The notes beneath the pieces were generated by a model that worked only from the letters and a program-made list of their open reading frames with translations, was not told where the DNA came from and made no database searches. 52,599 nt of DNA, taken from positions 1 to 52,599 of IMG/VR virus record IMGVR_UViG_3300045988_037879. One strand, 5' to 3'. Position 1 is the stretch's first letter; each line of letters starts with the position of its first letter. Origin of the DNA: a virus. This document shows positions 2,045-52,599 of the stretch, piece after piece. Made by a program: the position numbers and the translations under genes.

Positions 2045-2458
2045 TTAGGTGAAGTTGAAACACTTGCCGACCTTGACAATGGTTGTGTCTATCGGATAAA
2101 GTTCAATGGGCGGTTCATTCACGGCGCGTTTGCCGTTCATTTCCTGAACCTTTGCTTCTGCATCTTGGATTCCTTGAATAAGTATGTCCGACCCGGTGAA
2201 GCAACATCGCCTTTCGCCGTCGGGTGTGCCGTCAGGCTTCTTCACAAAGAAGTCGCCGTTTGCGTCGGCACAATCGTTGAACGTCGCAAGAACGACTTGC
2301 ATTTGCAGTCGCATTCCCGAATTGTTCTTGCCCGTGAACTTTGACTTTGAAATCTTTGTTTTCTCAATCAAGATGCGCTTGCCGAACAATTCTTCAATCT
2401 CGATTCCTTTTCCGATGATTGCCCCGGATTCAATTCCGAGGTCGCCAAACCTTGCCAT
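2045..2458 (-). CDS. Hypothetical protein (137 aa) between the DGR and the holin
   Basis: Long ORF tightly packed in the operon. I recognise no motif in it. Confidence 0.5.
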   Translation of the reverse strand: MARFGDLGIESGAIIGKGIEIEELFGKRILIEKTKISKSKFTGKNNSGMRLQMQVVLATFNDCADANGDFFVKKPDGTPDGERRCCFTGSDILIQGIQDAEAKVQEMNGKRAVNEPPIELYPIDTTIVKVGKCFNFT

Positions 2459-2481
2459 TGTTAGTAAGTGTTAGTTAGAAG

Positions 2482-2889
2482 TTAGTTGTTCAGGACTTCG
2501 ACCAATGCCGCGTCGATTTCTTCGGTCAGGGTTAAGAAGTCCTTATATTTCTGCACGGCGGTTTCATCGACCTTGATTCCCAACGTGTGCTTGTTGTAGG
2601 AGTTTACAAGGTCAAATTCGGCGGTTTCGTCCACGATGGAACGGATGATTGCCTTTTTCAAGTTCGCTTTGGTCGGGGCTGCAAATGTCCTGACTTCATA
2701 GCAAGACCACCCGGTTTGCACTTCCTCCGCGTCGGCGGACTGATTGGCGATGTCACCGCCGGGAATGCCCATTTCGGGCGCGACGTTAAGACGCACGATG
2801 CAAGAACCGTCGTTGTCCTTTTCAAGCATCTTCGGTTTTCCGTGCGTCATGTCGTAATGCGCATTTGGCGCGATTGAAACTAATTTCAT
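2482..2889 (-). CDS. Hypothetical acidic protein (115-135 aa) immediately downstream of the DGR RT
   Basis: The ORF overlaps the RT 3' end by 68 nt if it starts at 2889. Alternative ATGs lie at 2850 and 2829. It is not an obvious four-helix Avd. Confidence 0.5.
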   Translation of the reverse strand: MKLVSIAPNAHYDMTHGKPKMLEKDNDGSCIVRLNVAPEMGIPGGDIANQSADAEEVQTGWSCYEVRTFAAPTKANLKKAIIRSIVDETAEFDLVNSYNKHTLGIKVDETAVQKYKDFLTLTEEIDAALVEVLNN

Positions 2890-3982
2890 ACGGCATTGAT
2901 GTTTTTAGTTTGTTAAAAAGATTTCGTGAATTGCAGTATTTACACCAGCCCCACCAACTGCAAATTTGTTGGCGATACGCTTCTTTGGGCAAAGGCTTCT
3001 TCCGTTTGTTAAGACGTGCCACCCGGCGGCACAACCTTTGCTTGATTGACTTGCGCAATCGCGTGTGGGTGTGATAAAAGACATAACCCAAGAAGTCAAT
3101 TCCCCGCGCATCGACGGGGAACACCTGATAATTCCTTTTGACCGTCAGTTTCAACCCGGCAAGATAAGCCCGGATTTCGTGCAATAGTTCGTGCAAGGAA
3201 TCCTTGTCACCCGCAAGAATGACAATATCATCGGCATATCGGAAATAATATTTCACACGCTTTTTCTCTTTCAACCAATGGTCGAAGTAAGCCAACATCA
3301 GGTTTGCGAAATATTGCGAAAGGTAATTGCCAATCGGCACACCGTTTCCATCAATCGCAACAACCTTTCCGTTGACCTGAACGAAATTGCGGATGCTCAA
3401 ACCGGGATTGTCGGTTGAATCAATGATTTCATCAAGAAGTGCAAGCAATCGTGCGTCCTTGATTTTGCGACGCACTATGCCTTTCAACACTTCATGGTTA
3501 ATTGACGGATAGAACTTGCGGATGTCTATTTTCAGGCAATACCGTGTGCCGTCCTTATCCTCTTTCAATGCCCGGCGCACGTTCTTTGCGCAAGCATGAA
3601 TCCCGCGATTCTTGATGCAAGAATAAGTGTCCTTTGTGAACACCGACACCCAAATGGGTTCAAGCACGTTCATAATCGCATGGTGCAAGATTCGGTCGGG
3701 GAAATACGGCAAGCGGTATATTAGACGCTCTTTGGGTTCATATATAGTGAAAACATGATAAGGGGATGTCTTGAAAGTTCCGTTCTTTAATTGCTCGTGC
3801 AACGCAAGGATGTTCGCTTCACGGTTTTTGTCGTGCATCTGAACACCATAAGTCCGCGACTTTCCGCGCCTTGCCTTTTCATCGGCAAGACGTAAATTGT
3901 CAAGGCTTATGACCTTTTCAAAAAGATTGTTCAAACGCTTCATCCTTGCTTGAATAATTGGCTTCTTCGGTTTCCCTACCAA
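2822..3982 (-). CDS. DGR-type reverse transcriptase
   Basis: RT motifs include PIGNYLSQYFANL (the DGR-specific motif-4 signature, I/LGxxxSQ) and the catalytic box RYADDIVIL. The gene lies directly downstream of a template repeat. An alternative start is M14 (3943). Confidence 0.9.
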   Translation of the reverse strand: MVGKPKKPIIQARMKRLNNLFEKVISLDNLRLADEKARRGKSRTYGVQMHDKNREANILALHEQLKNGTFKTSPYHVFTIYEPKERLIYRLPYFPDRILHHAIMNVLEPIWVSVFTKDTYSCIKNRGIHACAKNVRRALKEDKDGTRYCLKIDIRKFYPSINHEVLKGIVRRKIKDARLLALLDEIIDSTDNPGLSIRNFVQVNGKVVAIDGNGVPIGNYLSQYFANLMLAYFDHWLKEKKRVKYYFRYADDIVILAGDKDSLHELLHEIRAYLAGLKLTVKRNYQVFPVDARGIDFLGYVFYHTHTRLRKSIKQRLCRRVARLNKRKKPLPKEAYRQQICSWWGWCKYCNSRNLFNKLKTSMPYEISFNRAKCALRHDARKTEDA

Positions 3983-4085
3983 AGCCGTTCAACGTGGTTT
4001 ATTTTTTGCCGTGGGTCGCCCCACTCATACACCCCCGGAACGGGATGTTTTTGTGGCAAGGTTTCAGGTGATGCAATATTTTTAC
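3983..4085 (-). other. TR-RT spacer, expected to be part of the DGR template RNA (Sp-like region)
   Basis: 103-nt non-coding gap between the TR 3' end and the RT start. Its role is inferred by analogy with the BPP-1 DGR RNA. Confidence 0.35.
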
Positions 4086-4201
4086 AAGCATTGCTGAGAA
4101 CCGATATTCGCATTCGTATTCGACGGCGCATTATTCGTATTCGCATACACGAAGCCTGCATTCGCACCATTATTCGCATTACCGCTGAACAAAACGCCGC
4201 G
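4086..4201 (-). repeat. DGR template repeat (TR), including the IMH*-like 3' end at 4086-4102
   Basis: 116 nt, non-coding. It is homologous to 4294-4409 and 43601-43677 and retains A (T on the + strand) at every mismatched position. In the target frame it carries 10 AAT codons. Confidence 0.92.
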
Positions 4202-4268
4202 ACACCTGACAACCCATTTTCTTTCATTTCAAGATTCCGTTAAAATGCTTTCGGGTAACGATTTCCGC

Positions 4269-5582
4269 TTACGCGGCGGTGTCGATTGGGTAAAAGCAAA
4301 GCCGAGAACCGAAATACGCACTCGCATACGACGGCGCATCATTCGTATACGCATACACGAAGCCCGCAAACGCACCATTACCCGCAGCACCGCCGAACAA
4401 AACGCCGCGTGTGGCTGAACCACTTGCCGGAATGTTCGTATAAAAGTAGTCGCAAAAATACGACGTTGTGCCACCACCGACCGCAAGGGGCATGATTTCG
4501 CCGTGTTCGCCGAGAATCAGGGCTTTAACATACCCCTCTTTACGGGGCAAGTTGCCGCGTAACTGATAGCCCGACCCGATGGTGCTTGCAAATTCGGCGG
4601 GATTGTCGCACACGAAAAATTCCGATAATCCCCCGGCGGCATCGGACTGAATGTTGCAAAGGCAACCATCCGTCCATTTCCATATATGACCGAAAGGATT
4701 TGTCACGCCGCGATAAGACGGAACGGCGACGGTCAGGGTTGCGCCGTACCCGGCGGGCAACGCATAATCGACAACCCCGGTGTGATTGCCCAACGAAAGG
4801 GTGTGACCGCAAGGGATGAACGGATTATAACCGCACCATGTGTTCCACTTGCCGCCGTCAAGGGTCGTGACACCCGCGCCAAGTCCGCCTTGACGGAATC
4901 CGTCGGCGGTCAATGCGGCGTTGTAAGCTGCTTGCGAATTGAAATTGCAATATTCAATCGCAAAGAACCACCACAACTTGCGGTGTGTCTGATATAGGTT
5001 GCAGTTCCACGACACCGACCCACGGGCGCGGGCGTATGCGCGGAAATTGGTCAGGCTGATAGACGTTGCCGGGCGACCTAACAAAGTGTGGTCGGTCGAA
5101 TCATACGACGCATTGTTGTTGCCGCCGCGATAGTCTGCATCGGTGTTGACCACCGCGCAAAGTTTGTTTGTTGACCGCTGAACACACGCTTCATCGGCGG
5201 AAACATAGTCTTTGCGCCATTTGATGAAACCCGGCAACGGTCGGTCGGACATCAGGGCGCGGCACTTGTTGCCGTCCATTTCAAAGCGCATATATGCGTC
5301 GGGCAACTCGACCATGAATTGACCGTCCGCCCCGGTCAGGTTTGCCGCCGCCCCGTTGTCGCGTTTTGAAGAATCGTTTGCGTGTAAGTAGTAATTGACC
5401 GTTCCATTGTCGCGTAAAACGCAACGGCGCATAAGTGACTGAACGGGCAAGGACTGATGAAGTTCGTTCTTGCCGATACGGGTTGGAATGGGATTTGAAA
5501 CGGTCTTATCCCATTCGATGCCGTAATAATAGTCATAAGCGAATGCGGGCTTTGTGTTGCCCGTGCCGATTAAAAGACCCAT
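4269..5582 (-). CDS. DGR target protein 1: tail-module receptor-binding protein with C-terminal variable region
   Basis: 437-aa ORF at the distal end of the tail genes. Its C-terminus ...GGAAGNGAFAGFVYAYTNDAPSYASAYFGSRLCF is encoded by VR1. A CLec/FGE-like fold is inferred. Confidence 0.85.
   Translation of the reverse strand: MGLLIGTGNTKPAFAYDYYYGIEWDKTVSNPIPTRIGKNELHQSLPVQSLMRRCVLRDNGTVNYYLHANDSSKRDNGAAANLTGADGQFMVELPDAYMRFEMDGNKCRALMSDRPLPGFIKWRKDYVSADEACVQRSTNKLCAVVNTDADYRGGNNNASYDSTDHTLLGRPATSISLTNFRAYARARGSVSWNCNLYQTHRKLWWFFAIEYCNFNSQAAYNAALTADGFRQGGLGAGVTTLDGGKWNTWCGYNPFIPCGHTLSLGNHTGVVDYALPAGYGATLTVAVPSYRGVTNPFGHIWKWTDGCLCNIQSDAAGGLSEFFVCDNPAEFASTIGSGYQLRGNLPRKEGYVKALILGEHGEIMPLAVGGGTTSYFCDYFYTNIPASGSATRGVLFGGAAGNGAFAGFVYAYTNDAPSYASAYFGSRLCFYPIDTAA
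4294..4409 (-). repeat. DGR variable repeat 1 (VR1), with IMH-like end at 4294-4310
   Basis: Gap-free alignment to the TR (offset 208). There are 15 mismatches over the 106-nt core, all at TR adenines. Confidence 0.92.
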
Positions 5583-5583
5583 A

Positions 5584-5856
5584 TTAGAAGCCCCATTTTA
5601 AGTTAGTATTCGCCAACGACGTTGGCATTATCTTTTTCACGATTTCGGGATTCCACCCGCAATCAAATTGCGTTGTGACGGAATCGCCGTCAGGCATCCC
5701 GGCAAGCTGCACCGATAGAGTGACCGGGGCGTTGCCGTCGTTCTTGATGTTGAAGCACTGACCGTCCGGCAAGGAAAAGCCGGAATCCGTCAGGGCAACA
5801 ACACCCATTTTGCCGATTTGGGCGGAAACTTGTTCGCCCGACCTTGTTGTGTCCAT
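5584..5856 (-). CDS. Hypothetical tail-module protein (90 aa)
   Basis: The ORF abuts DGR target 1 (stop at 5584, next start at 5582). Confidence 0.5.
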   Translation of the reverse strand: MDTTRSGEQVSAQIGKMGVVALTDSGFSLPDGQCFNIKNDGNAPVTLSVQLAGMPDGDSVTTQFDCGWNPEIVKKIMPTSLANTNLKWGF

Positions 5857-5895
5857 GTCGTAATTCGATTTGATGTTTGCAAAATTACTTCAATA

Positions 5896-5913
5896 TGTCT
5901 TACTATAAAACAC
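5896..5913. promoter_or_regulatory. Dispersed intergenic palindrome, copy 1
   Basis: TGTCTTACTATAAAACAC, lying between two minus-strand genes. Confidence 0.5.
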
Positions 5914-5936
5914 GGTTGAATAAATAAAGCATAACT

Positions 5937-6332
5937 TCACGCGATAAGGGCTTCAAGGCGGTTGATTTCATCGCGGATTGATTGCCTTTCCCGGTGCAAT
6001 TCCGCGATGTCATAAGGCAATGAATCACCGACCAAAGATGCTTCATAACACTTTGTTACCTTGTAGTCCGAATCTGCAAGTCCGGCTTTTAGTTCGTCGA
6101 TGCGGGCTTGTGTCGCCACGGGGTCAACCTTGATTTCCCACGACTGCACGACACATCCATCAACGACGGCGAATGAATCAACCGCGACAAACCCGGTTTC
6201 CGTTTGCGGTTGTTCGGTCGGCACAAAATTGAGAAACCCGGCATCCCGAAGTTGTGCCATTCTTTCGCCAAGCGACGGCGGACAAAAGCGAATGTCCGCC
6301 GTGCCATCAGGCAATATTTTTGCTAATTCCAT
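5937..6332 (-). CDS. Hypothetical tail-module protein (131 aa)
   Basis: ORF directly downstream of the large tail protein. Confidence 0.5.
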   Translation of the reverse strand: MELAKILPDGTADIRFCPPSLGERMAQLRDAGFLNFVPTEQPQTETGFVAVDSFAVVDGCVVQSWEIKVDPVATQARIDELKAGLADSDYKVTKCYEASLVGDSLPYDIAELHRERQSIRDEINRLEALIA

Positions 6333-6337
6333 GATTG

Positions 6338-9300
6338 TTAATTATATCGGTTAATGATTGTCCACCGTCCGGCATAGTAACGGAACATGATTGAATCACC
6401 CTTTGCCATGTCGATTGTCGAAACCGTTTCGCCATTCTGATTATACATTTGCCCCCCGGTTTGCGAAGTAAGAACAACGGTATTTGACATGAACGGGTCA
6501 CACACGATTTCCAAGTCAAATTGAATTGCGGCATTATCGGTCATTCGGTCAACCGTTGTTTTTGTCGGTAACTTCACACTCATTCGTCGTGACGTGCAAG
6601 ATGTGAAATAATATTTGTGAGTTTGACCAATCCATAATTCGATAATGTCAGTATAAACGCTACCAATGTAACCTTTTTCAAACATTGCGACCTTACCGAC
6701 ATTGAATTGATTTCCGAACACCGAAAGTGACTTCGGGCGATACCAATATTCATTTTGTTCATCGGCGGTCGTTTTGTGTTTGTGGTGAACTTCAAGTGCC
6801 GTTCCCATGTCACCCGTCAGTTCAAACAATCCGCAATAAGGATAGCCAAGTGAACCAAGGCAACCGACAAGAACCCTTTGGTCGCCGTTATAGAATCGAA
6901 TGAAATCACGCAACAATGCCAATCCGTGCGTCGTGTCTTGCTCCGACGATGAACCATAACCGATTCGCCCGGTTGAAATATTGAACCCGCCGATTGAGCC
7001 GGAAAGGGCATTTATAACACCCTCGACCGTTGCTTTGGTCATTACCACCGACCCGTCTTGCATTACTCGATAAGGCGCGGTTGCTCGGTTTTCAAAGGAT
7101 GCGCCCGCCCAAAAGCGGATTGATGATGCCGTCGTGCCTTGCCCGGTGATGCCCGCAAGGATGCTTTGATTGTCGCCCGCAACCTGAATTGTGCCGGACG
7201 TAACAATGCCGCCGTCAATGGTTGTTTTGGTGTTGTCGTAATATACGGCAACGACCCAATCGTTGGCATTGTAGGATTGCCCGGCGGCTTTCGCGGTGAT
7301 ACAACGGCGCAACTCTTTCCCGTCAACCCATAAGTCGCCGATGTCATAAGGGGGATAAGGGGTTGAAACAAAGACTTGACGTTTGCCGTCGGCGGTGTCT
7401 TGCGCCTTTGACGCTGCTTCATAAGCGGCAATGGCTTTTGCATCCTGAACAAGCGTCCACCCGTAGATTGGTGTTCTTACCCCGGTTTGTGGATGTGTGA
7501 AGTATGCGACAACACCGTAATACTTCAATTCGTGCGCCGTCGGCTTATACCACATATCGCCGGAATGTCGTTCTTTCAGTGCGGCGGTTGTCCACAATGT
7601 CGCCGGGTCGGATTCCTGAAACCATGTTTCAATCTTGCCGTCAATCTGATTTGTAAGATTGTTGATGGTATCATTATAATTGCCGTTGATAAAGTTATTC
7701 AACGCGGAATCATCGGTGTATTTTGAAGCCTTTTCCCAATCGCTTGAAGAAAATGCGCCGGATGCGCGGGCGGTCTTGCATCGGTAAATGTCGCCGCTTG
7801 CGCCCTGAACCCAAAGGTCGCCGACCGAATAAGGGGGATAAGGCGTTGACACGAAAATGCGGGCTTTGGAGTTCGCCGCGTCAAGGGCATCTTGCGCCAA
7901 TGACAAGGCTTGCGCCAATTCCGTATCTTCCAATTCTTTCCAATAGTAATAATCAGTCATTGACAACGCCGCGCCCGGACGCGGGCGCACTTTGCCTTTG
8001 ACATATCGCCAAACTTTGCCCGATTCGGTGTTATAAAACAAGTCGCCCAAGTGCTTTTCCCGTTCAGTGACACCACCGCTTGCGGCATCAGCTTCAACCC
8101 ATCCTTTTGCGGGTTCATTCGCCGTCGCGGTCGGGGCGGTGCTGTCCGGGGTCGGGTCAACCTCATAGAACCATTGTTCAATCACACCATCAAGTTGCGA
8201 TTGAAGCCCCGAAAGAAGCCCCGGCAAGGTGTTGTTGATGAAATCCTTGCTTTCAAGGGCTTCTTGCCCCAATTCTTCAAGGGTCTTTTCTTCTCCGTTG
8301 GAGTTGAACACGATGCGACCGCCGATTTCGGAATTGTCCAAATCGAAGTATGTTTCACCGTCGGCGGATTCGATGCGCCCGGTCTTGATGAACCGCCCGT
8401 TTATCATGGTGAATCCATAAGTCAGGGCGACGGAACGTGCCTTGATGTCAGGGTCAACGGAATTGATAACACCTATCCAAAACCAATAATAATTGGCATC
8501 CTCGTTGACCTTGTGTTGTGCGGTCGTGATTTGAATTGTGCCGTCTTGTCCGGCTTTGTTGCACCGGGCATAAATATAAAATGCTTGGGTGTCGGGGGTA
8601 AGGGTGATTTGACCGTCTGCAAGCACCCACGACACCGCCGATTCCTCGTTGATGGTGTAATGGGTCAGCACACCGCCTTTCCACCTGAAAATGCGCGGAT
8701 TTCCGTTATAATTCGGCTCAAACACCGTGTTTGTCAACCCGAATTGCATTGATTTCGCGCCGACGGATAATGCAAGCGTATCAATCGAATTGGGCTTGAT
8801 TTTGTCGGTGTAATAATCACCCTCCGGGTCGAAAACCATGTCAAGGACTTCACGACTTGACCGCCAATTTGCGCGGGCGCGGGCGGGGTCTTTAAGATTG
8901 TTGATTTCCAAAATCTTGTCAATGTCGATGATGTCGGAAATCACCCGGTTGGTGATGGTCGTTGTCACCGTGTCCGATATGGTCAAGTTATATTCGTAAG
9001 GGTCAAGGATGTTGCGCGTGATTGCCTTGATGCGAATTGCCTTGTCCACGTCAATGTCAGGGTCTTTAATAGGCACATAATCCCCCGGCACAAAGACGTT
9101 GACAATCCCGGCTTCCGTCGCAAAGTTCTTTTCGATGTAAGCCTTTGTGACGCTGACCGAATATTGCACTTTGGGTTGCGCGTTTTGGTCGTAATACTTT
9201 GTTCCGGCTTCCAAAAGTTCGGCTTCCGCCGCGCTTATCAGCTCCGGCGGCAAAGTGATGTCCACAATCTTATATTCATTTCCCGTGGCAAACTGAAACG

Positions 9301-22100: not shown

Positions 22101-22193
22101 CGGGCGCGGGTTAAGTTACTCCCGACTTATTCACATTTTGCATTGCATCAGCATTAAAATTGCACTGCAAATGCAAAATTTTTCCTTGAAAAG

Positions 22194-35621: not shown

Positions 35622-35665
35622 GTCCTTTTGTATTGCATTTGCATTGCTTTTGCTTAACACTTGCA

Positions 35666-36247
35666 TCAATACTTTTTGCCGTGCTTGTAAGGACGGGTGA
35701 CATTGTAACGCATCTTTGCGCGGACGTGCCAATCAAGGTTGACACCCTGACTTTCCGCCCACAACGTCATGTAATGGATGCCGAATTGGATGCGCTTGAA
35801 AATGTTGATGCTTTCGCGGCACAACCCTTTGGTCAGGGCAAAGGCATTTTCGGTGAAACTGAATCGGTCGAATGCGCGGTGGTACTTGTTGGGGGTCAGC
35901 TTGTCGAAGTCAAGCCCGAATGCCCCGGCAAGGTCAAGAAGCCGAATCACGACATCCGCCATTTCATCCTCGACGGTGTTTTTCACCATTTCATCGAATG
36001 CCGCGATGAAGTCGGGGGCGGAATCGACATCATCAATCAAGCGGCATTTTTGCGCGGCGGCAAGATTGCGTTGCTTGCGGATGTGGTTAATGACCGCGAC
36101 GTTGCCTTTTCGGTCGGCTTCGACCATTTCCGCAATCTCGGTAACAACAAGCATCAGGCAATGTTCGGTGCTTGGCTTGTTTTCCCACCATCCATGCTTC
36201 AAGGCATTGGCGTGGACGGCTTCGGTCAGTGAATTAAGATTTTTCAT
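35666..36247 (-). CDS. MazG-like NTP pyrophosphohydrolase
   Basis: All-alpha NTP-PPase pattern with EIAEMVEA and EDEMADVVIRLLD acidic motifs. Confidence 0.6.
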   Translation of the reverse strand: MKNLNSLTEAVHANALKHGWWENKPSTEHCLMLVVTEIAEMVEADRKGNVAVINHIRKQRNLAAAQKCRLIDDVDSAPDFIAAFDEMVKNTVEDEMADVVIRLLDLAGAFGLDFDKLTPNKYHRAFDRFSFTENAFALTKGLCRESINIFKRIQFGIHYMTLWAESQGVNLDWHVRAKMRYNVTRPYKHGKKY

Positions 36248-36901
36248 TTAGAAAAGTTTTAATTGTTGTTGGTGATACAAAAGACGCTGTTTCGCGGCTT
36301 GATAATACCCGGCATCAAGTTCGATTCCCAGCATTTCAAAGTTCAGGTCATGCGCTGCAAGGCATATCGACCCCGACCCCAAATGTGTGTCAAGAATCTT
36401 ATCGCCCGGCTTTGCGTAATTGTTGAGCAACCACCCGTAAAGCGATTTTGGCTTTTCGGTCGGGTGGATGGTGTTTTGTCTTGCAAGTTCACATCGGTTG
36501 ATTGTGACAAGGCGGGTCGGGCAATCGAATGATGAATAAGCCAATTCACAATCCGACATTGTAAGTCCGGTTTGACCCTTGAACCACACAATCCAACCTT
36601 TTGTGCCTTTGTCAAGCATCGGAACAAAGTAATTTGCGCCCCAAATGATTTGGTTTTTGCTAACACGTTGTAATTCAGCAAAATAAATTTGGGGGGGTAA
36701 TTTGTCCCAACCCTTTGTTTCGTGATGCTTTCGGTTGTGCTTCGGATTCTTGCAAATGCAAGCCTTTTGCCCGTCAATACCGATTCCATAAGGCGGGTCA
36801 ACGATTGCAAGGTCAAAGGCGTTGTCCGGCAACGTCGCCATGACTTCAAGGCAATCAGCATTGACAAGGCTTATTGTTCCGAATGTTTCAATCTCGTTCA
36901 T
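36248..36901 (-). CDS. DNA methyltransferase, N6-adenine/N4-cytosine class (DPPY)
   Basis: Catalytic motif IVDPPYGIG and AdoMet motif ILDTHLGSGS. Confidence 0.85.
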   Translation of the reverse strand: MNEIETFGTISLVNADCLEVMATLPDNAFDLAIVDPPYGIGIDGQKACICKNPKHNRKHHETKGWDKLPPQIYFAELQRVSKNQIIWGANYFVPMLDKGTKGWIVWFKGQTGLTMSDCELAYSSFDCPTRLVTINRCELARQNTIHPTEKPKSLYGWLLNNYAKPGDKILDTHLGSGSICLAAHDLNFEMLGIELDAGYYQAAKQRLLYHQQQLKLF

Positions 36902-37793: not shown

Positions 37794-39392
37794 TTAAATT
37801 GCTACTTTTGTGACGCACAATGGGGTCAAAGATTTATAAAGCGATTCGCACAAGACACGCGCCATGTTGACTTCAACGGCATTGCCGATGAACTTCTTTT
37901 GCTCGGTCTGATTCCCCACAAGAACGTAATCTTCCGGGAATCCCATAATCAACTTTAATTCGGGGATTTTCAACATTCGCATCTTTATGTCAATGATGCC
38001 GAATAACACCATGAATTGCTTTATTTTCACGGTCATTGGCGAATCATCCGGCAAGATAGGAATTGCGAAATGCCCAAATTCGGGATTCATCAGGTAATGG
38101 AATTTATGATTTGCCGTTATGACCGGGCAAGGCTCGTTCACGTCGCTTCCAATATTGTTGAAGTTGGTGTTCATCACCCACGGGCGTTGAACCGTGACAA
38201 GTTTGTGTTTTGGGTTTGCCGTTAGAGTTCCGGCGGCGGTTTCGACTGATGCCGGTGTGCCGTTCCCGTATTGCATATCAAGGAAAACACTATTGACAAC
38301 CGCCAATTTTTCCTTTGTTGTCAGGGTCGGGGCGGGTGCGTCGATTGAACGGTTGTTCCCGTTTCCGTAAAACGCCGTGACAAAGGCGTGATGGTCAACA
38401 CAAGTGATTGTTCCGGCGGGTTCATCGGTCGAACAATTCTTGCTTTCAGGATGCCCGCCGAATTGCTTTGACAAGAACGACACTTGCGCGACTGCAAGGC
38501 GGTTTTGTGTCGCAACGACCGGGCAAGGTTCATCGACCGACGGGGCTTGATACCGCCCAGCCTGATTCATGGAATTATACTTGACCATGAATTTATCCTT
38601 GCCCCCGGCAACGAATTTGACCAATCCGGCGAATATGCGTTCAAGGGTCTTTTCGGACAAGGGCTTTTCCCGCCCGAATATAGACCGCCCCTCGTCGGAA
38701 AAGTCCAACACGTCTTTGACGGGCTTCCACCTTTGCAAGCTGCCGAACAATCCCGGTTCGGGATTCTTTGCGTGTGTCGGTTCGGGAAAGGTTATTGGCA
38801 AGCCTTTCTTTGCGAATATGCCGAAGAACCGCTTGCGGCTCGTGTATGCCCCGAAATCGGCGGCATTCAAGATGCGGTGGGCGAAATCGTAACCGTATTT
38901 TTTAACATTGCGAATCCAACGGCAATATGCTTTGCCCTTGTCCATCGAAATCGGCTTCCCGTTTTCATCTACATCACCCCACGACATAAATTCTTCGACG
39001 TTTTCAATTTGGATATAATCGGGGTCGATTGCTTCGATATAACGGAACAAGTGTTCGGCAAGGGTGCGGGAATCCGCGTCGCGGGGCTGACCGCCTTTCG
39101 CCTTGCTGAAATTTGTGCATTCAAGGGATGCCCACAACACCACAAAGGCATCCGGGTTCATTGTCCGGCACTTTTTCAGGTGTTCGACAAGGGGTGTCAA
39201 CTCCAACGTGCGGATGTCCTCGGTGAAGTGCATTGCGTCGGGGTGATTGCTTGCGTGTGATGCAATCGCCTTTGCGTCATGGTTGACGCAAGCGATAACA
39301 CGGGCGCATTCCTGACCGTTGACCCGCGCAAGGTTGACACCCGTTGAAGTGCCGCCCGCGCCACAAAATAAGTCGATATATAATAATTTCAT
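37794..39392 (-). CDS. DNA (cytosine-5)-methyltransferase (532 aa)
   Basis: Motif I DLFCGAGG, IQIENVEEF, SRKRFFGIF, and C-terminal GFPEDY...IGNAVEV. There is a long variable region between motifs VIII and IX. Confidence 0.85.
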   Translation of the reverse strand: MKLLYIDLFCGAGGTSTGVNLARVNGQECARVIACVNHDAKAIASHASNHPDAMHFTEDIRTLELTPLVEHLKKCRTMNPDAFVVLWASLECTNFSKAKGGQPRDADSRTLAEHLFRYIEAIDPDYIQIENVEEFMSWGDVDENGKPISMDKGKAYCRWIRNVKKYGYDFAHRILNAADFGAYTSRKRFFGIFAKKGLPITFPEPTHAKNPEPGLFGSLQRWKPVKDVLDFSDEGRSIFGREKPLSEKTLERIFAGLVKFVAGGKDKFMVKYNSMNQAGRYQAPSVDEPCPVVATQNRLAVAQVSFLSKQFGGHPESKNCSTDEPAGTITCVDHHAFVTAFYGNGNNRSIDAPAPTLTTKEKLAVVNSVFLDMQYGNGTPASVETAAGTLTANPKHKLVTVQRPWVMNTNFNNIGSDVNEPCPVITANHKFHYLMNPEFGHFAIPILPDDSPMTVKIKQFMVLFGIIDIKMRMLKIPELKLIMGFPEDYVLVGNQTEQKKFIGNAVEVNMARVLCESLYKSLTPLCVTKVAI

Positions 39393-41521: not shown

Positions 41522-42225
41522 TCATCATTTACGTTTCGTGATGCACTTGTTTTCGTTTTCCGGGATGCCGGGCGGCGCGGATTCTCTCTTTCGCGCTTTT
41601 CCCATGTGACAAGGGCGGCTTTCCAATCTTTCATCTTGTTTTTGCCGACATACCAATTTTTTGACTGATAAAAGGCAATGAAACTTTCGGCATCGACTGA
41701 ATAACCCTTTTCAAGAATATGCGCTTGCACTTCTTCAAGTGTCGGTGGAATAAACCGCTTTTGCGGTTTTTCCCTATCTTCTTCGATAGAAGAAGTATTA
41801 TTATTTTCTTTTCTTTTCTTTTCTTTTGCATCAATTTGCATTGCATTTGCATCGGTGGTGCTTTGCTTTTGTTGGTTGGCGCTTGATTGCCAACGGGTTA
41901 ATGCGGCGCGTTTGCGCCTTTCGCTGATTTGCTGACGCTTGCCAAGACGCTTGTTGACCGAATTTGACCAAAAGGTTTCGCCGTTGTTTTCAAACAACCC
42001 AAAGTCATTGACAACACTTTCAACCATTTTGCATTCCTGATGCAATGCAAATGCAATGCTTTTGCAAGATTTCAAAGGCAATTCCCCGCCTTGCTCATAA
42101 AGCTGCTCGACAATGCACCAAAACACGCCAAGACCCGCCGCGCCATGCTCAATAAGAACATCTTGCAACTTGGGGTCGTTCCGGGCGTTGTAGTCGTGCG
42201 GGAAATAATATGTTTTATCTTTCAT
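41512..42225 (-). CDS. Replisome organiser / replication initiator-like protein
   Basis: N-terminus YYFPHDYNARNDPKL (Bacteroidota phage replication-protein N-domain pattern), a Lys-rich linker, and a C-terminal DnaD-like IAFYQSKNWYVGKNKMKDWKAAL. Confidence 0.65.
   Translation of the reverse strand: MKDKTYYFPHDYNARNDPKLQDVLIEHGAAGLGVFWCIVEQLYEQGGELPLKSCKSIAFALHQECKMVESVVNDFGLFENNGETFWSNSVNKRLGKRQQISERRKRAALTRWQSSANQQKQSTTDANAMQIDAKEKKRKENNNTSSIEEDREKPQKRFIPPTLEEVQAHILEKGYSVDAESFIAFYQSKNWYVGKNKMKDWKAALVTWEKRERENPRRPASRKTKTSASRNVNDEWK
41790..41853 (-). repeat. ATGCAAATGCAAT motif plus purine tract inside the replication gene (putative origin element); inverted copy of 50728-50792
   Basis: Minus-strand sequence GATGCAAATGCAATGCAAATTGATGCAAAAGAAAAGAAAAGAAAAGAAAATAATAATAC. 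Compare 50728-50792. Confidence 0.55.
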
Positions 42226-43527: not shown

Positions 43528-44151
43528 TTAGAACAAAAGAACTTTGTTCCAAAGGTCGATGAACTGATTTCCGAATTGACGGGCGCGATTTGCGGTTTTG
43601 AAGCAAAGCCGAGAACCGAAATACGCAGACGTATACGACGGCGCATTATACGTATCCGCACACACGAAGCCCGCACGGTTTTTGTCATAGACAAACCACG
43701 GAAACCACTTGTCTTGACGGCTGTTTGAGAAGTCCGGCACGAAATCATCCGCCTTGTTCCACGCTTCCGCGATGGTGAACAATTCGTTCAGGGCGGTAAG
43801 TGCCTTGACGTGCGACGGGTTCAGGGCATCGACAAGACGGGTGACATCTTCAAGACCCGGCACGGTGTTGGTGGCGGCAATTTTTTTGCTGACCGTAAAT
43901 TGCTTGTTCGCCTTGCCGCCAAGATATTCACGGGCGGTGATGTAGTCGGTGATGGTTTCGTTGGGTTCTTCCTTGACTTCGACTTCTTCAAGGCTGAAAT
44001 CAAAGGGGGTCAACCATTCATCGTCGGTCGGGTCAAGACCATCGTTTGCGTCGCTGATGTAGTTGCCCATCGCGTCGGCGGCATCCTGACGGGTAGCAAA
44101 GCAACCCACGGTTTCGCCGTTTTCGGTGTTTGAAAGTTTATACTTTATCAT
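43528..44151 (-). CDS. DGR target protein 2 (207 aa) encoded in the early/recombination operon
   Basis: The segment NRAGFVCADTYNAPSYTSAYFGSRLCF is encoded by VR2. 23 codons follow the VR. Confidence 0.8.
   Translation of the reverse strand: MIKYKLSNTENGETVGCFATRQDAADAMGNYISDANDGLDPTDDEWLTPFDFSLEEVEVKEEPNETITDYITAREYLGGKANKQFTVSKKIAATNTVPGLEDVTRLVDALNPSHVKALTALNELFTIAEAWNKADDFVPDFSNSRQDKWFPWFVYDKNRAGFVCADTYNAPSYTSAYFGSRLCFKTANRARQFGNQFIDLWNKVLLF
43601..43677 (-). repeat. DGR variable repeat 2 (VR2, truncated), with IMH-like end at 43601-43617
   Basis: Gap-free alignment of 43611-43677 to TR 4096-4162. There are 11 mismatches, all at TR adenines. The 17-nt 3' end is identical to that of VR1. 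Confidence 0.88.
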
Positions 44152-50862: not shown

Positions 50863-51156
50863 ATGAAAAAATCAGTCAACCCCCAAGCGATTGAAATAAC
50901 CCGCCGATTCTTTCAAGCCCTGAATCTCGCTATCGAGTTGGGCAAGGTCGATGGCATCAAAGGATTTTGCGAGGCGCACCACTTGAACCGGGTAAAATAT
51001 GCGACCTTGAAAATGACCATCGACAAGCCCGTTGATGAAATGACTTACAAGTGCATTGACGTGGACGCATTGGCGGGCATCTGCAATGACTTCGGGGTGT
51101 CGGCTGAATGGTTGCTTCTCGGACGGGGCAAAATGCTTAAAACGGACGCAAAATGA
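50863..51156 (+). CDS. CI-repressor-type HTH protein (97 aa)
   Basis: C-terminal ICNDFGVSAEWLLLGRGKM, typical of phage CI-type HTH domains. An ATGA overlap couples it to int. Confidence 0.6.
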   Translation: MKKSVNPQAIEITRRFFQALNLAIELGKVDGIKGFCEAHHLNRVKYATLKMTIDKPVDEMTYKCIDVDALAGICNDFGVSAEWLLLGRGKMLKTDAK

Positions 51157-52424
51157 AAATAAATTGGTCAGTCAAATTCTTGCCGCACAAACGCGGCAAA
51201 GATGTTTGTCCAATCCGAATGCGCGTGACGCTCCGGGGGCAAATACCCCTTGATTTTCCTTTGGGGCAATCCGTGAATCTTGATTCGTGGGATGCCGACA
51301 CGCAAAGGGTCAAGCCGGACAACCCAGATGCAACGACAATCAACCGCATCATGGATGAATGGCGGTCGGCAATCGGTGAAGTAATAGCACGTTATGAATT
51401 GCTTGAAAAGCGGATTCCCGACCCCGGCGAAGTCAAGGAATTGTTCAATGATTTGGTCGGACGCAACACCGCCGTTAAAGAAGTAATCCAAGACCCGGTT
51501 TCATTGTCCTTTTTCCAAGTTTATGACAAATTCACGTCAACCGTCGGCAATGAAAATCAATGGACGGATGCGACCTTTCAAAAGTTCAAGGCATTAAAGA
51601 AGCGATTGCAGACATTCGACCGCCTTTTGTCGTTTCACACCCTGACCGATGCGAAATTGCAAGAATTTGTCGCCGACTTGATGAAAAAGGGCTTGAAGAA
51701 TACAACCATTGCTAAGAACCTTGCCTTTGTCCGTTGGTTTGTCAGGTGGGCGGCGGCACATGGTTATTATTCCGGCAATGTGCATGAAACATTCCGCCCC
51801 AAACTCAAAGGCACTGACGGCAACGCAAAGGAAATTATTTATTTGACACAAGAAGAAGTCCGAGCAATTTCCGACCTGACATTTACCGCCGACGAACAAC
51901 ACTTGGAACATACCCGCGACGTGTTCTTGTTCTGCTGTTATACGGGGTTGCGCTTCTCCGATGTCGCCAAGTTGAAGCGGTGTGATGTCAAAGACACTTA
52001 CATTGACGTGGTAACGCAAAAGACCGTTGACGGGCTGAAAATAGAGTTGAACAAACATTCCCGCGCAATCCTTGACAAATACAAGGACGTGAAGTTTCGG
52101 AACGACCTTGCATTGCCCGTTCCGTGCAATGTGCGTATGAATCTTTATTTGAAAGACATCGCAAAGGCGGCGGGCATCGACACCCCGACCCGCATTGTGT
52201 ATTTCAACGGCAACCAACGGCATGAAGAAGTATTTCCGAAATGGGCATTGATAACAACCCATGTCGCTCGGCGCACGTTTGTTGTCACCGCCTTGCAGCT
52301 TGGAATTGCCGCCGAAGTGATAATGCGATGGACGGGGCATTCAAAGTTTGAAGCGATGAAGCCTTACATTGCCATTGTAGATGAATTGAAGAAAGAATCA
52401 ATGACCAAATTTAATAAAATATGA
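51153..52424 (+). CDS. int: Tyrosine integrase (Bacteroides-type, with N-terminal arm-binding and SAM-like domains)
   Basis: YTGLRFSDV (Arg), THVARRTF (HxxR) and WTGHSKFEAMKPY (His...Tyr). Confidence 0.92.
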   Translation: MKINWSVKFLPHKRGKDVCPIRMRVTLRGQIPLDFPLGQSVNLDSWDADTQRVKPDNPDATTINRIMDEWRSAIGEVIARYELLEKRIPDPGEVKELFNDLVGRNTAVKEVIQDPVSLSFFQVYDKFTSTVGNENQWTDATFQKFKALKKRLQTFDRLLSFHTLTDAKLQEFVADLMKKGLKNTTIAKNLAFVRWFVRWAAAHGYYSGNVHETFRPKLKGTDGNAKEIIYLTQEEVRAISDLTFTADEQHLEHTRDVFLFCCYTGLRFSDVAKLKRCDVKDTYIDVVTQKTVDGLKIELNKHSRAILDKYKDVKFRNDLALPVPCNVRMNLYLKDIAKAAGIDTPTRIVYFNGNQRHEEVFPKWALITTHVARRTFVVTALQLGIAAEVIMRWTGHSKFEAMKPYIAIVDELKKESMTKFNKI

Positions 52425-52500: not shown

Positions 52501-52599
52501 TATCCGATGTCACATTTTAGTATAAATATAAATAAATAAGCGAGTTGGAATTTAACGACATTGCAGAGTTTCAGGCGTTAGGCTCTCGTTCTCTCCGCA
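52501..52599. repeat. Right copy of exact 99-bp terminal direct repeat
   Basis: Identical to 1-99. Confidence 0.95.

Follow-up and report, generated by a model that had tools for sequence, protein, structure and literature searches.

The element described here, a diversity-generating retroelement (DGR), lies on the minus strand of IMG/VR record IMGVR_UViG_3300045988_037879, positions 1 to 52,599 (this whole stretch is the window below), and its parts follow the order target gene, template repeat (TR), spacer and reverse transcriptase (RT) gene. The prototype with which it is best compared is the DGR of Bordetella phage BPP-1, organized as mtd-avd-TR-brt. The window shares with BPP-1 a homologous RT, a TR that differs from its variable repeat (VR) only at adenines, and the placement of that VR at the 3' end of a tail gene. 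Also shared are a fixed 3' difference between TR and VR that would follow the logic of the initiation of mutagenic homing site and its TR variant (IMH/IMH*), a small hairpin after the VR and a non-coding TR-RT spacer of about 140 nt. The BPP-1 spacer segment Sp pairs with the 3' end of the TR and primes cDNA synthesis (PMC6182149), and in the window TGCTTG at the 3' end of the TR pairs in comparable fashion with CAAGCA in the spacer. In contrast to BPP-1, the window has no detectable avd gene between target and TR or elsewhere in the genome, has two targets rather than one, and has a tail-gene target without detectable sequence similarity to Mtd or to C-type lectins. Its 3' block is not a G/C-only IMH, and the sequence and structure of its spacer RNA are specific to its lineage.

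Two VRs are also found in the DGR of Quimbyvirus, one of the 'Quimbyviridae' phages of Bacteroides and Prevotella, one of them downstream of tail-fibre genes and the other distal and presumed to be non-structural (Benler et al. 2021, PMC8008677). Quimbyvirus is likewise a phage of gut Bacteroidales in which adenine-specific variation was demonstrated by comparing near-identical genomes. Its RT, however, is split over three overlapping frames, whereas the window RT is a single open reading frame (ORF), and its second target is on the opposite strand within a methyltransferase/nuclease 'defence' island, whereas that of the window is on the same strand among recombination and replication genes (PMC8008677). 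Within the phage collection, the RTs nearest to that of the window (55-59% identity) belong to crAss-like phages, such as uncultured phage cr55_1 (MT774376), and to Bacteroides phage Versailles (ON453897), which encode a homologous target of 33-45% identity. The crAss-like cassette likewise has the target followed by the RT with no annotated Avd, and Versailles encodes a second protein resembling the C-terminal half of the protein that carries the second VR (VR2) of the window. The backbones are different, with Crassvirales genomes of ~100 kb on the one hand and a 52.5-kb temperate phage with an integrase on the other. A core TR-RT unit without an accessory gene is shared with the 'Architecture A' or avd-less DGRs, and DGRs associated with phages are often equipped with another target up to 50 kb away inside one prophage (Wu et al. 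2018, PMC5758913). Counts of second targets are probably too low, because large metagenomic surveys explicitly miss targets that are not adjacent to the DGR (PMC8144416).

A preliminary description made from the letters of this DNA alone had called the locus a DGR, and that identification holds: the RT is of DGR type, the TR/VR pair differs only at adenines, the VR is at the 3' end of its gene, and an invariant TR is paired with a hypervariable VR. At the level of sequence, every feature expected of a DGR is present except an accessory gene, which is optional in the family. We are strongly confident that the window carries an intact DGR of a temperate phage of Bacteroidales, most likely of Muribaculaceae, that is active now or was very recently and consists of target, TR, spacer and RT without an Avd-type gene. 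It is not novel in kind, because two-target phage DGRs with a non-structural target (PMC8008677) and Avd-less DGRs (PMC5758913) have been published; the second target, the Avd-less layout, a covarying spacer RNA outside Rfam and an AAATCG mark downstream of the VRs extend what is known usefully but incrementally. Its value is that of a clean and data-rich example, with thousands of public relatives, natural RT-deletion variants and two very different target contexts. Relatives in Bacteroides pyogenes DSM 20611, Prevotella sp. S7-1-8 and Muribaculaceae isolates offer a cultivable host range for tests. The questions thereby made testable are priming and processivity in Avd-less DGRs, the recognition of a distant target, and the gain to a phage from diversifying a non-structural early protein.

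Adenine-only variation between TR and VR1

An independent ungapped comparison on the minus strand reproduced the counts first reported for TR and the VR of the tail gene (VR1). Over the 106 nt of TR 4201..4096 and VR1 4409..4304 there are 15 mismatches, all of them at TR adenines, and none at any other base; 15 of the 26 adenines and none of the 80 other bases have changed (TR composition A26 G31 T28 C21). The hypergeometric probability that all 15 would fall on A by chance is 1.2e-11. A repeat finder recovered the pair unprompted (family D1, spacing 208), with the TR 208 nt downstream of VR1. The TR had been bounded at 4201 to 4086; the pair is confirmed but the homology runs on to 4083 in the TR and 4291 in VR1 (119 nt), which brings in three further differences at A sites and, at its far end, one G>T.

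Phage genomes do acquire direct repeats of such length and the window holds other weak repeat families, and a segmental duplication or gene conversion whose 119-nt copies diverged by normal mutation, with no reverse transcription, has to be considered. The base-specific asymmetry effectively refutes it. Beyond the 15 of 15 differences on A in the window, the 75 TR/VR pairs that we compiled from 73 relative loci plus the window have 1150 mismatches at TR-A positions against 45 at other bases, and A is replaced about equally by T (415), G (386) and C (349). The TR is invariant while the two other copies vary, and a DGR-type RT adjoins the repeats.

Relatives of the tail-module target (target 1) number 243 in IMG/VR, of which 80 were fetched, with 4818 homologues in the protein collection. 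In the seven closest loci, at 94-95% amino acid (aa) identity, the TR is the same bar one base and differences among the VR1s are restricted to TR-A positions; in more distant relatives, non-A changes of the TR are mirrored in both VRs. Every one of 20 target-1 proteins at least 94% identical to that of the window has a different VR. The sites with at least six residue types in these proteins are exactly the ten AAT codons (399, 401, 402, 405, 412, 414, 415, 419, 421 and 423), and at the TAT, ACG and ATC codons the number of residue types reaches three or four at most, matching the codon logic. Pairwise differences come to 10.9 in the 39-aa VR and 8.25 in the remaining 391 aa. Among near-identical genomes, which stand in here for within-population variation, the TR is invariant and the VR hypervariable.

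VR1 spans codons 392-430 of the 437 codons of target 1. The translations of TR and VR1 given in the preliminary description, with their ten AAT codons, were reproduced, as was the arithmetic behind a theoretical repertoire of ~6e14 (15^10 x 4^5 = 5.9e14). The usable repertoire is nearer 1.5e14, about a four-fold cut, because A15 of the TR (in an AGC codon; window 4186) is G in 65 of 65 VR1s.

Two relatives can be read as natural DGR-loss controls. L012 (IMGVR_UViG_3300045988_066172, 7300-7725) is without TR and RT, and its target is followed directly by a homologue of window ORF 2889..2482. L009 (IMGVR_UViG_3300045988_012044, 7300-7700) lacks the TR and RT residues 1-268, with residues 269-373 remaining. 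In both, the VR equivalent has drifted at non-A positions and no repeat remains, and the VR2 of the L009 contig has likewise drifted (L099). The start of the 135-aa ORF that overlaps the end of the RT gene (MKLVSIAPNAHYDMTHG) is conserved in the DGR-less L012, so the C-terminal tail of the RT reads into a pre-existing neighbour gene; this suggests insertion or deletion of the TR-RT unit as a block.

One further relative, L075 (IMGVR_UViG_3300000304_000103, 7326-7866), has an extra 210-bp unit between VR1 and TR. The unit contains a 56-aa orphan ORF with a TR 5' flank, an A-mutated repeat and a VR 3' flank (GSRLCFYPQIEAA), and could have arisen by VR/TR recombination, mis-targeted homing or mis-assembly.

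Reverse transcriptase, spacer RNA and sites flanking the VRs

The RT has the PIGNYLSQYFANL motif and the YADD box that had been noticed earlier. In an alignment to a solved RT, IGNYLSQ stands opposite IGSLTSQ (the IGxxxSQ signature of DGRs, motif 4) and YADD opposite YMDD. The best solved relative is 8ub7_A, a 328-aa 'Reverse transcriptase' (followed by eight further entries), with E 1.5e-50 and 176 bits, against at most 85 bits for group II intron and other solved RTs. From its length and sequence we take 8ub7 to be the Bordetella phage bRT.

An RT of another retroelement or defence system (group II intron, retron, or abortive infection (Abi) and defence-associated (DRT) systems) that lies beside the repeats by coincidence would be in keeping with the NCBIfam ranking, in which the best match is the group II intron RT/maturase TIGR04416 (127.9 bits) and the next is Drt3a (77.5 bits), and with the 'retron-type' annotation of one crAss-like relative. 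All family scores, however, are far below their curated cut-offs: 300 for TIGR04416, 200 for Drt3a, 235 for retron St85 (score 51.8) and 390 for Drt2 (score 51.4). The wide margin of 8ub7 over other solved RTs and the IGxxxSQ signature also speak against coincidence, as does the finding that in relatives the RT is always accompanied by a TR and a VR-bearing target. Rfam scans of the whole window at gathering threshold and of 3850-4450 at E <= 1 detected no RNA family at all, group II intron RNA and retron msr/msd included. The preliminary description had named two outcomes as refuting it, mismatches at non-adenine positions on realignment and an RT that groups with retron, group II or Abi RTs. 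Neither was observed; the data support a DGR-type RT, and we regard a coincidental RT of another kind as extremely improbable.

The RT ORF listed at 3982 to 2822 is present, but its start is most likely ATG 3943 (M14 of the listed ORF) and not TTG 3982, because the match to the solved RT sets in only at residue 15 of that ORF, and because the conservation of 3982..3944 is that of an RNA, with loop indels of lengths not divisible by three.

No Pfam match to Avd or another relevant accessory family (Avd, HRDC, MSL, CH1) was found at E <= 1e-3 in the flanking ORFs or the ~70 ORFs of the window. This genome-wide Pfam scan used a concatenated pseudo-protein, and spurious 'Serglycin' matches from the GS linkers were discarded. 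About 29% of 372 curated DGRs have no accessory gene ('Architecture A') and Lineage 3 lacks avd, so the missing Avd is not disqualifying (PMC5758913). Two neighbouring ORFs were considered as hidden accessory genes and rejected: the 135-aa ORF 2889..2482 persists in the RT/TR-less L009 and L012, the 90-aa ORF 5856..5584 persists in the RT/TR-less L009, and neither is similar to Avd.

The TR-RT spacer is a conserved structured RNA. Its five helices (Table 1) have 94% paired cells and 11 pairs with compensatory changes in an alignment of 30 relatives (A3); none of 500 shuffles was as good, and sliding the partners reduced pairing to 30-50%. A covariance model (R1) located the RNA in 41 of 58 independent sources, in each case on the strand of the target homologue and shortly after it; among these sources are genomes with a target only 43-58% identical. 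Pairing in the R1 alignment reaches 95% of cells, with compensatory change in 19 of 23 pairs, although these values are somewhat favourable in that the alignment was fitted to the model. R1 gave no match in the crAss-like phage cr55_1, and the spacer has no match in Rfam even at E <= 1 (3850-4450). A long-range helix proposed by RNAalifold (columns 47-54 with 136-143) was rejected, as it is invariant and hence uninformative and clashes with a covarying GNRA hairpin. Because the BPP-1 spacer folds back on the TR 3' end (PMC6182149), the spacer of the window is presumably the counterpart of the 'Sp' priming and processivity segment.

The 3' ends of TR and VR carry a fixed difference, CAGCAATGCTTG in the TR and CGGCTTTGCTTT in the VR, consisting of A106>G, A110>T and G116>T/C. 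These changes are the same in every relative and both VRs and are therefore not products of mutagenesis. By analogy with BPP-1, the VR 3' block would behave like an IMH and the TR 3' block like an IMH*-like variant.

All 34 distinct VR1 flanks and 28 of 29 VR2 flanks have the word AAATCG in the first 45 nt downstream of the repeat, whereas none of 28 TR flanks has it there; the background is 0.035 per 45 nt. Downstream of VR1 the word is often placed around a short GC hairpin whose loop is GNRA-like, and relatives have different GC stems with short loops in the same place; in the window the loop of this hairpin holds the TAA stop codon of target 1. The post-VR hairpin is short and not universal among relatives, and what we claim for the VR flanks rests on the count of AAATCG motifs and not on folding energy. 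In VR2 relatives AAATCG is retained despite an 8-nt shift and an altered encoded peptide, which would argue for selection on the word as DNA, although the sequences compared are related.

Two target proteins in different modules

The placement of target 1 in the tail module agrees with its profile match (Table 1) and with its position directly downstream of tail proteins of 1359 and 401 aa. Its C-terminal 200 aa form a module that recurs as the C-terminal part of proteins from 150 to 1280 aa long (1477 clusters, 50% identity), some of which carry fn3, collagen, Fibritin_C or T4 gp9/10_N domains. This distribution fits a fibre or baseplate tip, and a receptor-binding role may be proposed from position and relatives. 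A Pfam scan of every member of alignments A1, A2 and A5 returned only noise or N-terminal fibre-type domains.

The preliminary description was right about VR1 but left out a second target, whose VR2 lies at 43677..43598. A repeat search gave a third copy of the repeat at 43716..43598, the real homology being ~43677..43598. Apart from the last two bases, TR and VR2 (~75 nt) differ only where the TR has adenine. VR2 corresponds to codons ~159-184 of 207 and is ~39 kb from VR1 on the map, or ~13 kb round the circle. Target 2 sits between a metallo-beta-lactamase-fold gene and a 149-aa ORF; further neighbours, by Pfam, are a RecT-sized gene, an SMC/AAA_15 ATPase and replication-associated genes. 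It is thus in the early/recombination module and not the virion module, and is probably non-structural.

VR2 was compared in 64 relatives, and the protein collection holds 3802 target-2 homologues. Within the closest group of relatives VR2 varies only at TR-A positions, and the hypervariable residues of the target-2 family (166, 168, 169, 173, 175 and 177) map to AAT codons. In seven contigs with both loci, each contig's own TR and own VR2 differ at 13-15 A sites; mismatches at other bases are confined to the two edges, with none internally, and lineage-specific non-A changes of the TR (GGC>GGG, GCGCCGTCG>ACGGCTACG) have been copied into the VR2 of the same contig. This A-site-only variation and the mirroring of the non-A changes of its own TR identify VR2 as a live second target. 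That VR1 is the only true target, with VR2 a decayed or chance copy no longer rewritten, might be argued from the match of VR2 to only the 3' ~80 nt of the TR with no homology upstream, from its distance from the RT in a non-structural module, and from the 28 residues that follow it, which place it short of the extreme C-terminus. Given the evidence from the seven contigs and the retention of the same 3' block and AAATCG motif, we consider this unlikely.

Target families 1 and 2 share only the 38 columns encoded by the VRs (hhalign 97%). The theoretical repertoire of VR2 is 15^6 x 4^4 = 2.9e9; transfer of the AAT at TR position 39 as well would raise it to 4.4e10. The N-terminal ~60 aa of target 2 have a confident AlphaFold2 (AF2) fold, with predicted local distance difference test (pLDDT) scores of 83-91 and a beta-beta-alpha-beta order, for which Foldseek found no structural match in the PDB.

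Table 1. Features of the DGR and of the genes associated with it; coordinates are window positions.
Feature	Coordinates	Strand	Details
Target gene 1	4269..5582	-	437 aa; VR1 within last ~45 codons; phrog_5302 'tail protein' E 1.6e-121
VR1	4291..4409	-	mutagenised core 4394..4313; fixed 3' block 4310..4291 (GGTTCTCGGCTTTGCTTTTA)
Candidate target-recognition element after VR1	4259..4287	-	CAATCG 4288..4283; hairpin CCGC-GTAA-GCGG 4276..4265; AAATCG 4264..4259
TR	4083..4201	-	26 A in first 106 nt; 3' block CAGCAATGCTTG; untranslated in window (no in-frame start codon)
TR-RT spacer	3944..4082	-	139 nt; conserved structured RNA; covariation in relatives
Spacer helix with TR 3' end	4090..4085 with 3952..3947	-	TGCTTG (TR 3' end) with CAAGCA (just before RT start)
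Other spacer helices	4047..4042 with 4035..4030; 4024..4020 with 4015..4011; 4010..4008 with 3985..3983; 3976..3975 with 3970..3969	-	
DGR RT	2822..3943	-	373 aa from ATG 3943; Pfam RVT_1 E 2.3e-19; phrog_1423 E 9.5e-134
135-aa ORF	2482..2889	-	phrog_11557 (function unknown); overlaps last 68 nt of RT gene
Target gene 2	43528..44151	-	207 aa; phrog_11581 (unknown function) E 1.7e-18; replication/recombination module
VR2	43598..43677	-	TR positions ~39-118 (TR 4162..4083); 3' block CGGCTTTGCTT; AAATCG at 43591..43586
Tyrosine integrase	51153-52424	+	Bacteroidetes-type Arm-DNA-binding domain; beside HTH (helix-turn-helix) repressor-like genes

Activity, proposed mechanism and phage context

On the BPP-1 paradigm (PMC6182149, PMC5758913), a transcript spanning the TR and the structured 139-nt spacer would be copied by the RT into cDNA, with the spacer as the probable priming segment, and the RT would put in near-random bases opposite template adenines. 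The cDNA would then replace the homologous stretch in two genes, at VR1 in the C-terminus of the tail-module protein and at VR2 in the 207-aa early-region protein. Directionality, by which the TR is never overwritten, would most likely be set by the fixed 3' difference between CAGCAATGCTTG in the TR and CGGCTTTGCTT in the VRs together with the downstream AAATCG and its GC hairpin, which are confined to the VRs. The outcome would be up to ~1e14 variants of the tail tip, presumably tracking changing host surfaces, and about 3e9-4e10 variants of target 2.

Several observations weigh against an intact and currently active DGR. The evidence for diversification is a comparison across relatives and not within one population. 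An identical VR1 was found in four samples (L003-L006) and an identical VR2 in three (L081-L083), so turnover is not fast enough for every sample to differ. No Avd or other accessory gene was detected, though Avd is essential in the BPP-1 prototype. A44 of the TR (window 4157) is G in 50 of 52 VR1s and in every VR2, a bias that simple random A-mutagenesis plus selection on the protein does not explain, the change (GCA>GCG) being synonymous. The stem of the post-VR1 hairpin is only 4 bp, and folding energies downstream of the VRs are not clearly below those of shuffles (mean z -0.6 and -1.1). The C-type lectin or FGE-like fold that the preliminary description expected was not confirmed. The AF2 models of the two targets, built from alignments of 30-37 rows, have pLDDT of 47 and 60.5 and are disordered over the VR. 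A Foldseek search of the PDB with these low-confidence models gave nothing below E 0.1, an outcome that carries no weight given the quality of the models, and sequence and profile searches of the VR domains against Pfam and the PDB (alignments A2 and A5 against the PDB) gave no match. Pfam and NCBIfam searches of both targets and of the small ORFs beside them likewise came back empty.

The repeated VRs and the lack of a detected Avd, together with the restriction of the evidence to comparisons between relatives, would also accord with a relic, that is, a DGR that diversified the VRs earlier and whose copy in the window no longer works, leaving the differences frozen. Against this, the RT ORF is intact with all catalytic motifs, and the TR, the spacer RNA and the 3' blocks of both VRs are intact and match those of relatives. 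VR1 has zero non-A differences over 106 nt, whereas the relatives without the RT show drift at such sites. VRs differ in all of the phages that are otherwise at least 94-95% identical, so turnover has been recent on the scale of genome divergence. A relic is in our judgement improbable, and an intact DGR, working now or until very recently, remains the preferred interpretation.

Several of these features could be joined in a more speculative scheme, which we put forward as a tentative possibility that is more doubtful than not. The phage would belong to a widespread Bacteroidales prophage lineage that represents an Avd-independent branch of DGRs, in which a lineage-specific spacer RNA replaces the Avd-RNA scaffold and AAATCG after each VR, with or without the GC hairpin, specifies the targets. 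Target 2 would then be an intracellular, non-virion hypervariable binder expressed with the recombination and replication genes, and instead of binding a receptor it may, for example, act as a diversifying factor in anti-defence or superinfection exclusion.

The window is a complete, circularly closed genome of 52.5 kb, as indicated by an exact 99-nt direct repeat at both ends (1-99 and 52501-52599), which is most simply the assembly overlap of a circular or circularly permuted phage genome. A Pfam scan of ~70 predicted ORFs identified genes for terminase, portal, capsid, tape-measure-sized and tail proteins, endolysin, two DNA methyltransferases, single-stranded DNA-binding protein, a Rha/antirepressor and a tyrosine integrase of Bacteroidetes type; the integrase adjoins HTH repressor-like genes, and the phage is therefore temperate. 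No tRNAs were found in a scan of the window. Target-1 relatives lie within contigs of Muribaculaceae (95% identity), Prevotella, Bacteroides pyogenes DSM 20611, Alistipes and others. The phage is a member of a temperate family of gut Bacteroidales, and its host is most likely a member of the Muribaculaceae. A megablast search of INPHARED with 2400-6400 gave no DNA match and so no named close relative there.

Two whole-phage-sized contigs with a target 85-87% identical to that of the window are found inside metagenome-assembled genomes (MAGs) outside the Bacteroidales: L147 (CAMWQM010000012.1, 52,844 bp) in a 'Helicobacteraceae' MAG and L181 (JAMPAE010000001.1, 52,833 bp) in a 'Ruminococcus' MAG. 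They are almost certainly mis-binned free phage genomes and call for caution in host assignment.

The two DNA methyltransferases are encoded on the minus strand of the early region at 36248-36901 and 37794-39392, one of N6/N4 type and one of C5-cytosine type, and presumably serve anti-restriction. An AT-rich repeat of TTGCA/TGCAA words (CATTTTGCATTGCAT...GCAAATGCAAAATTT) is present in three copies 63-71% alike, at 22134-22181, 35624-35671 and 42025-42072. At least the first copy is intergenic, and the repeats may be operator or promoter-like sites.

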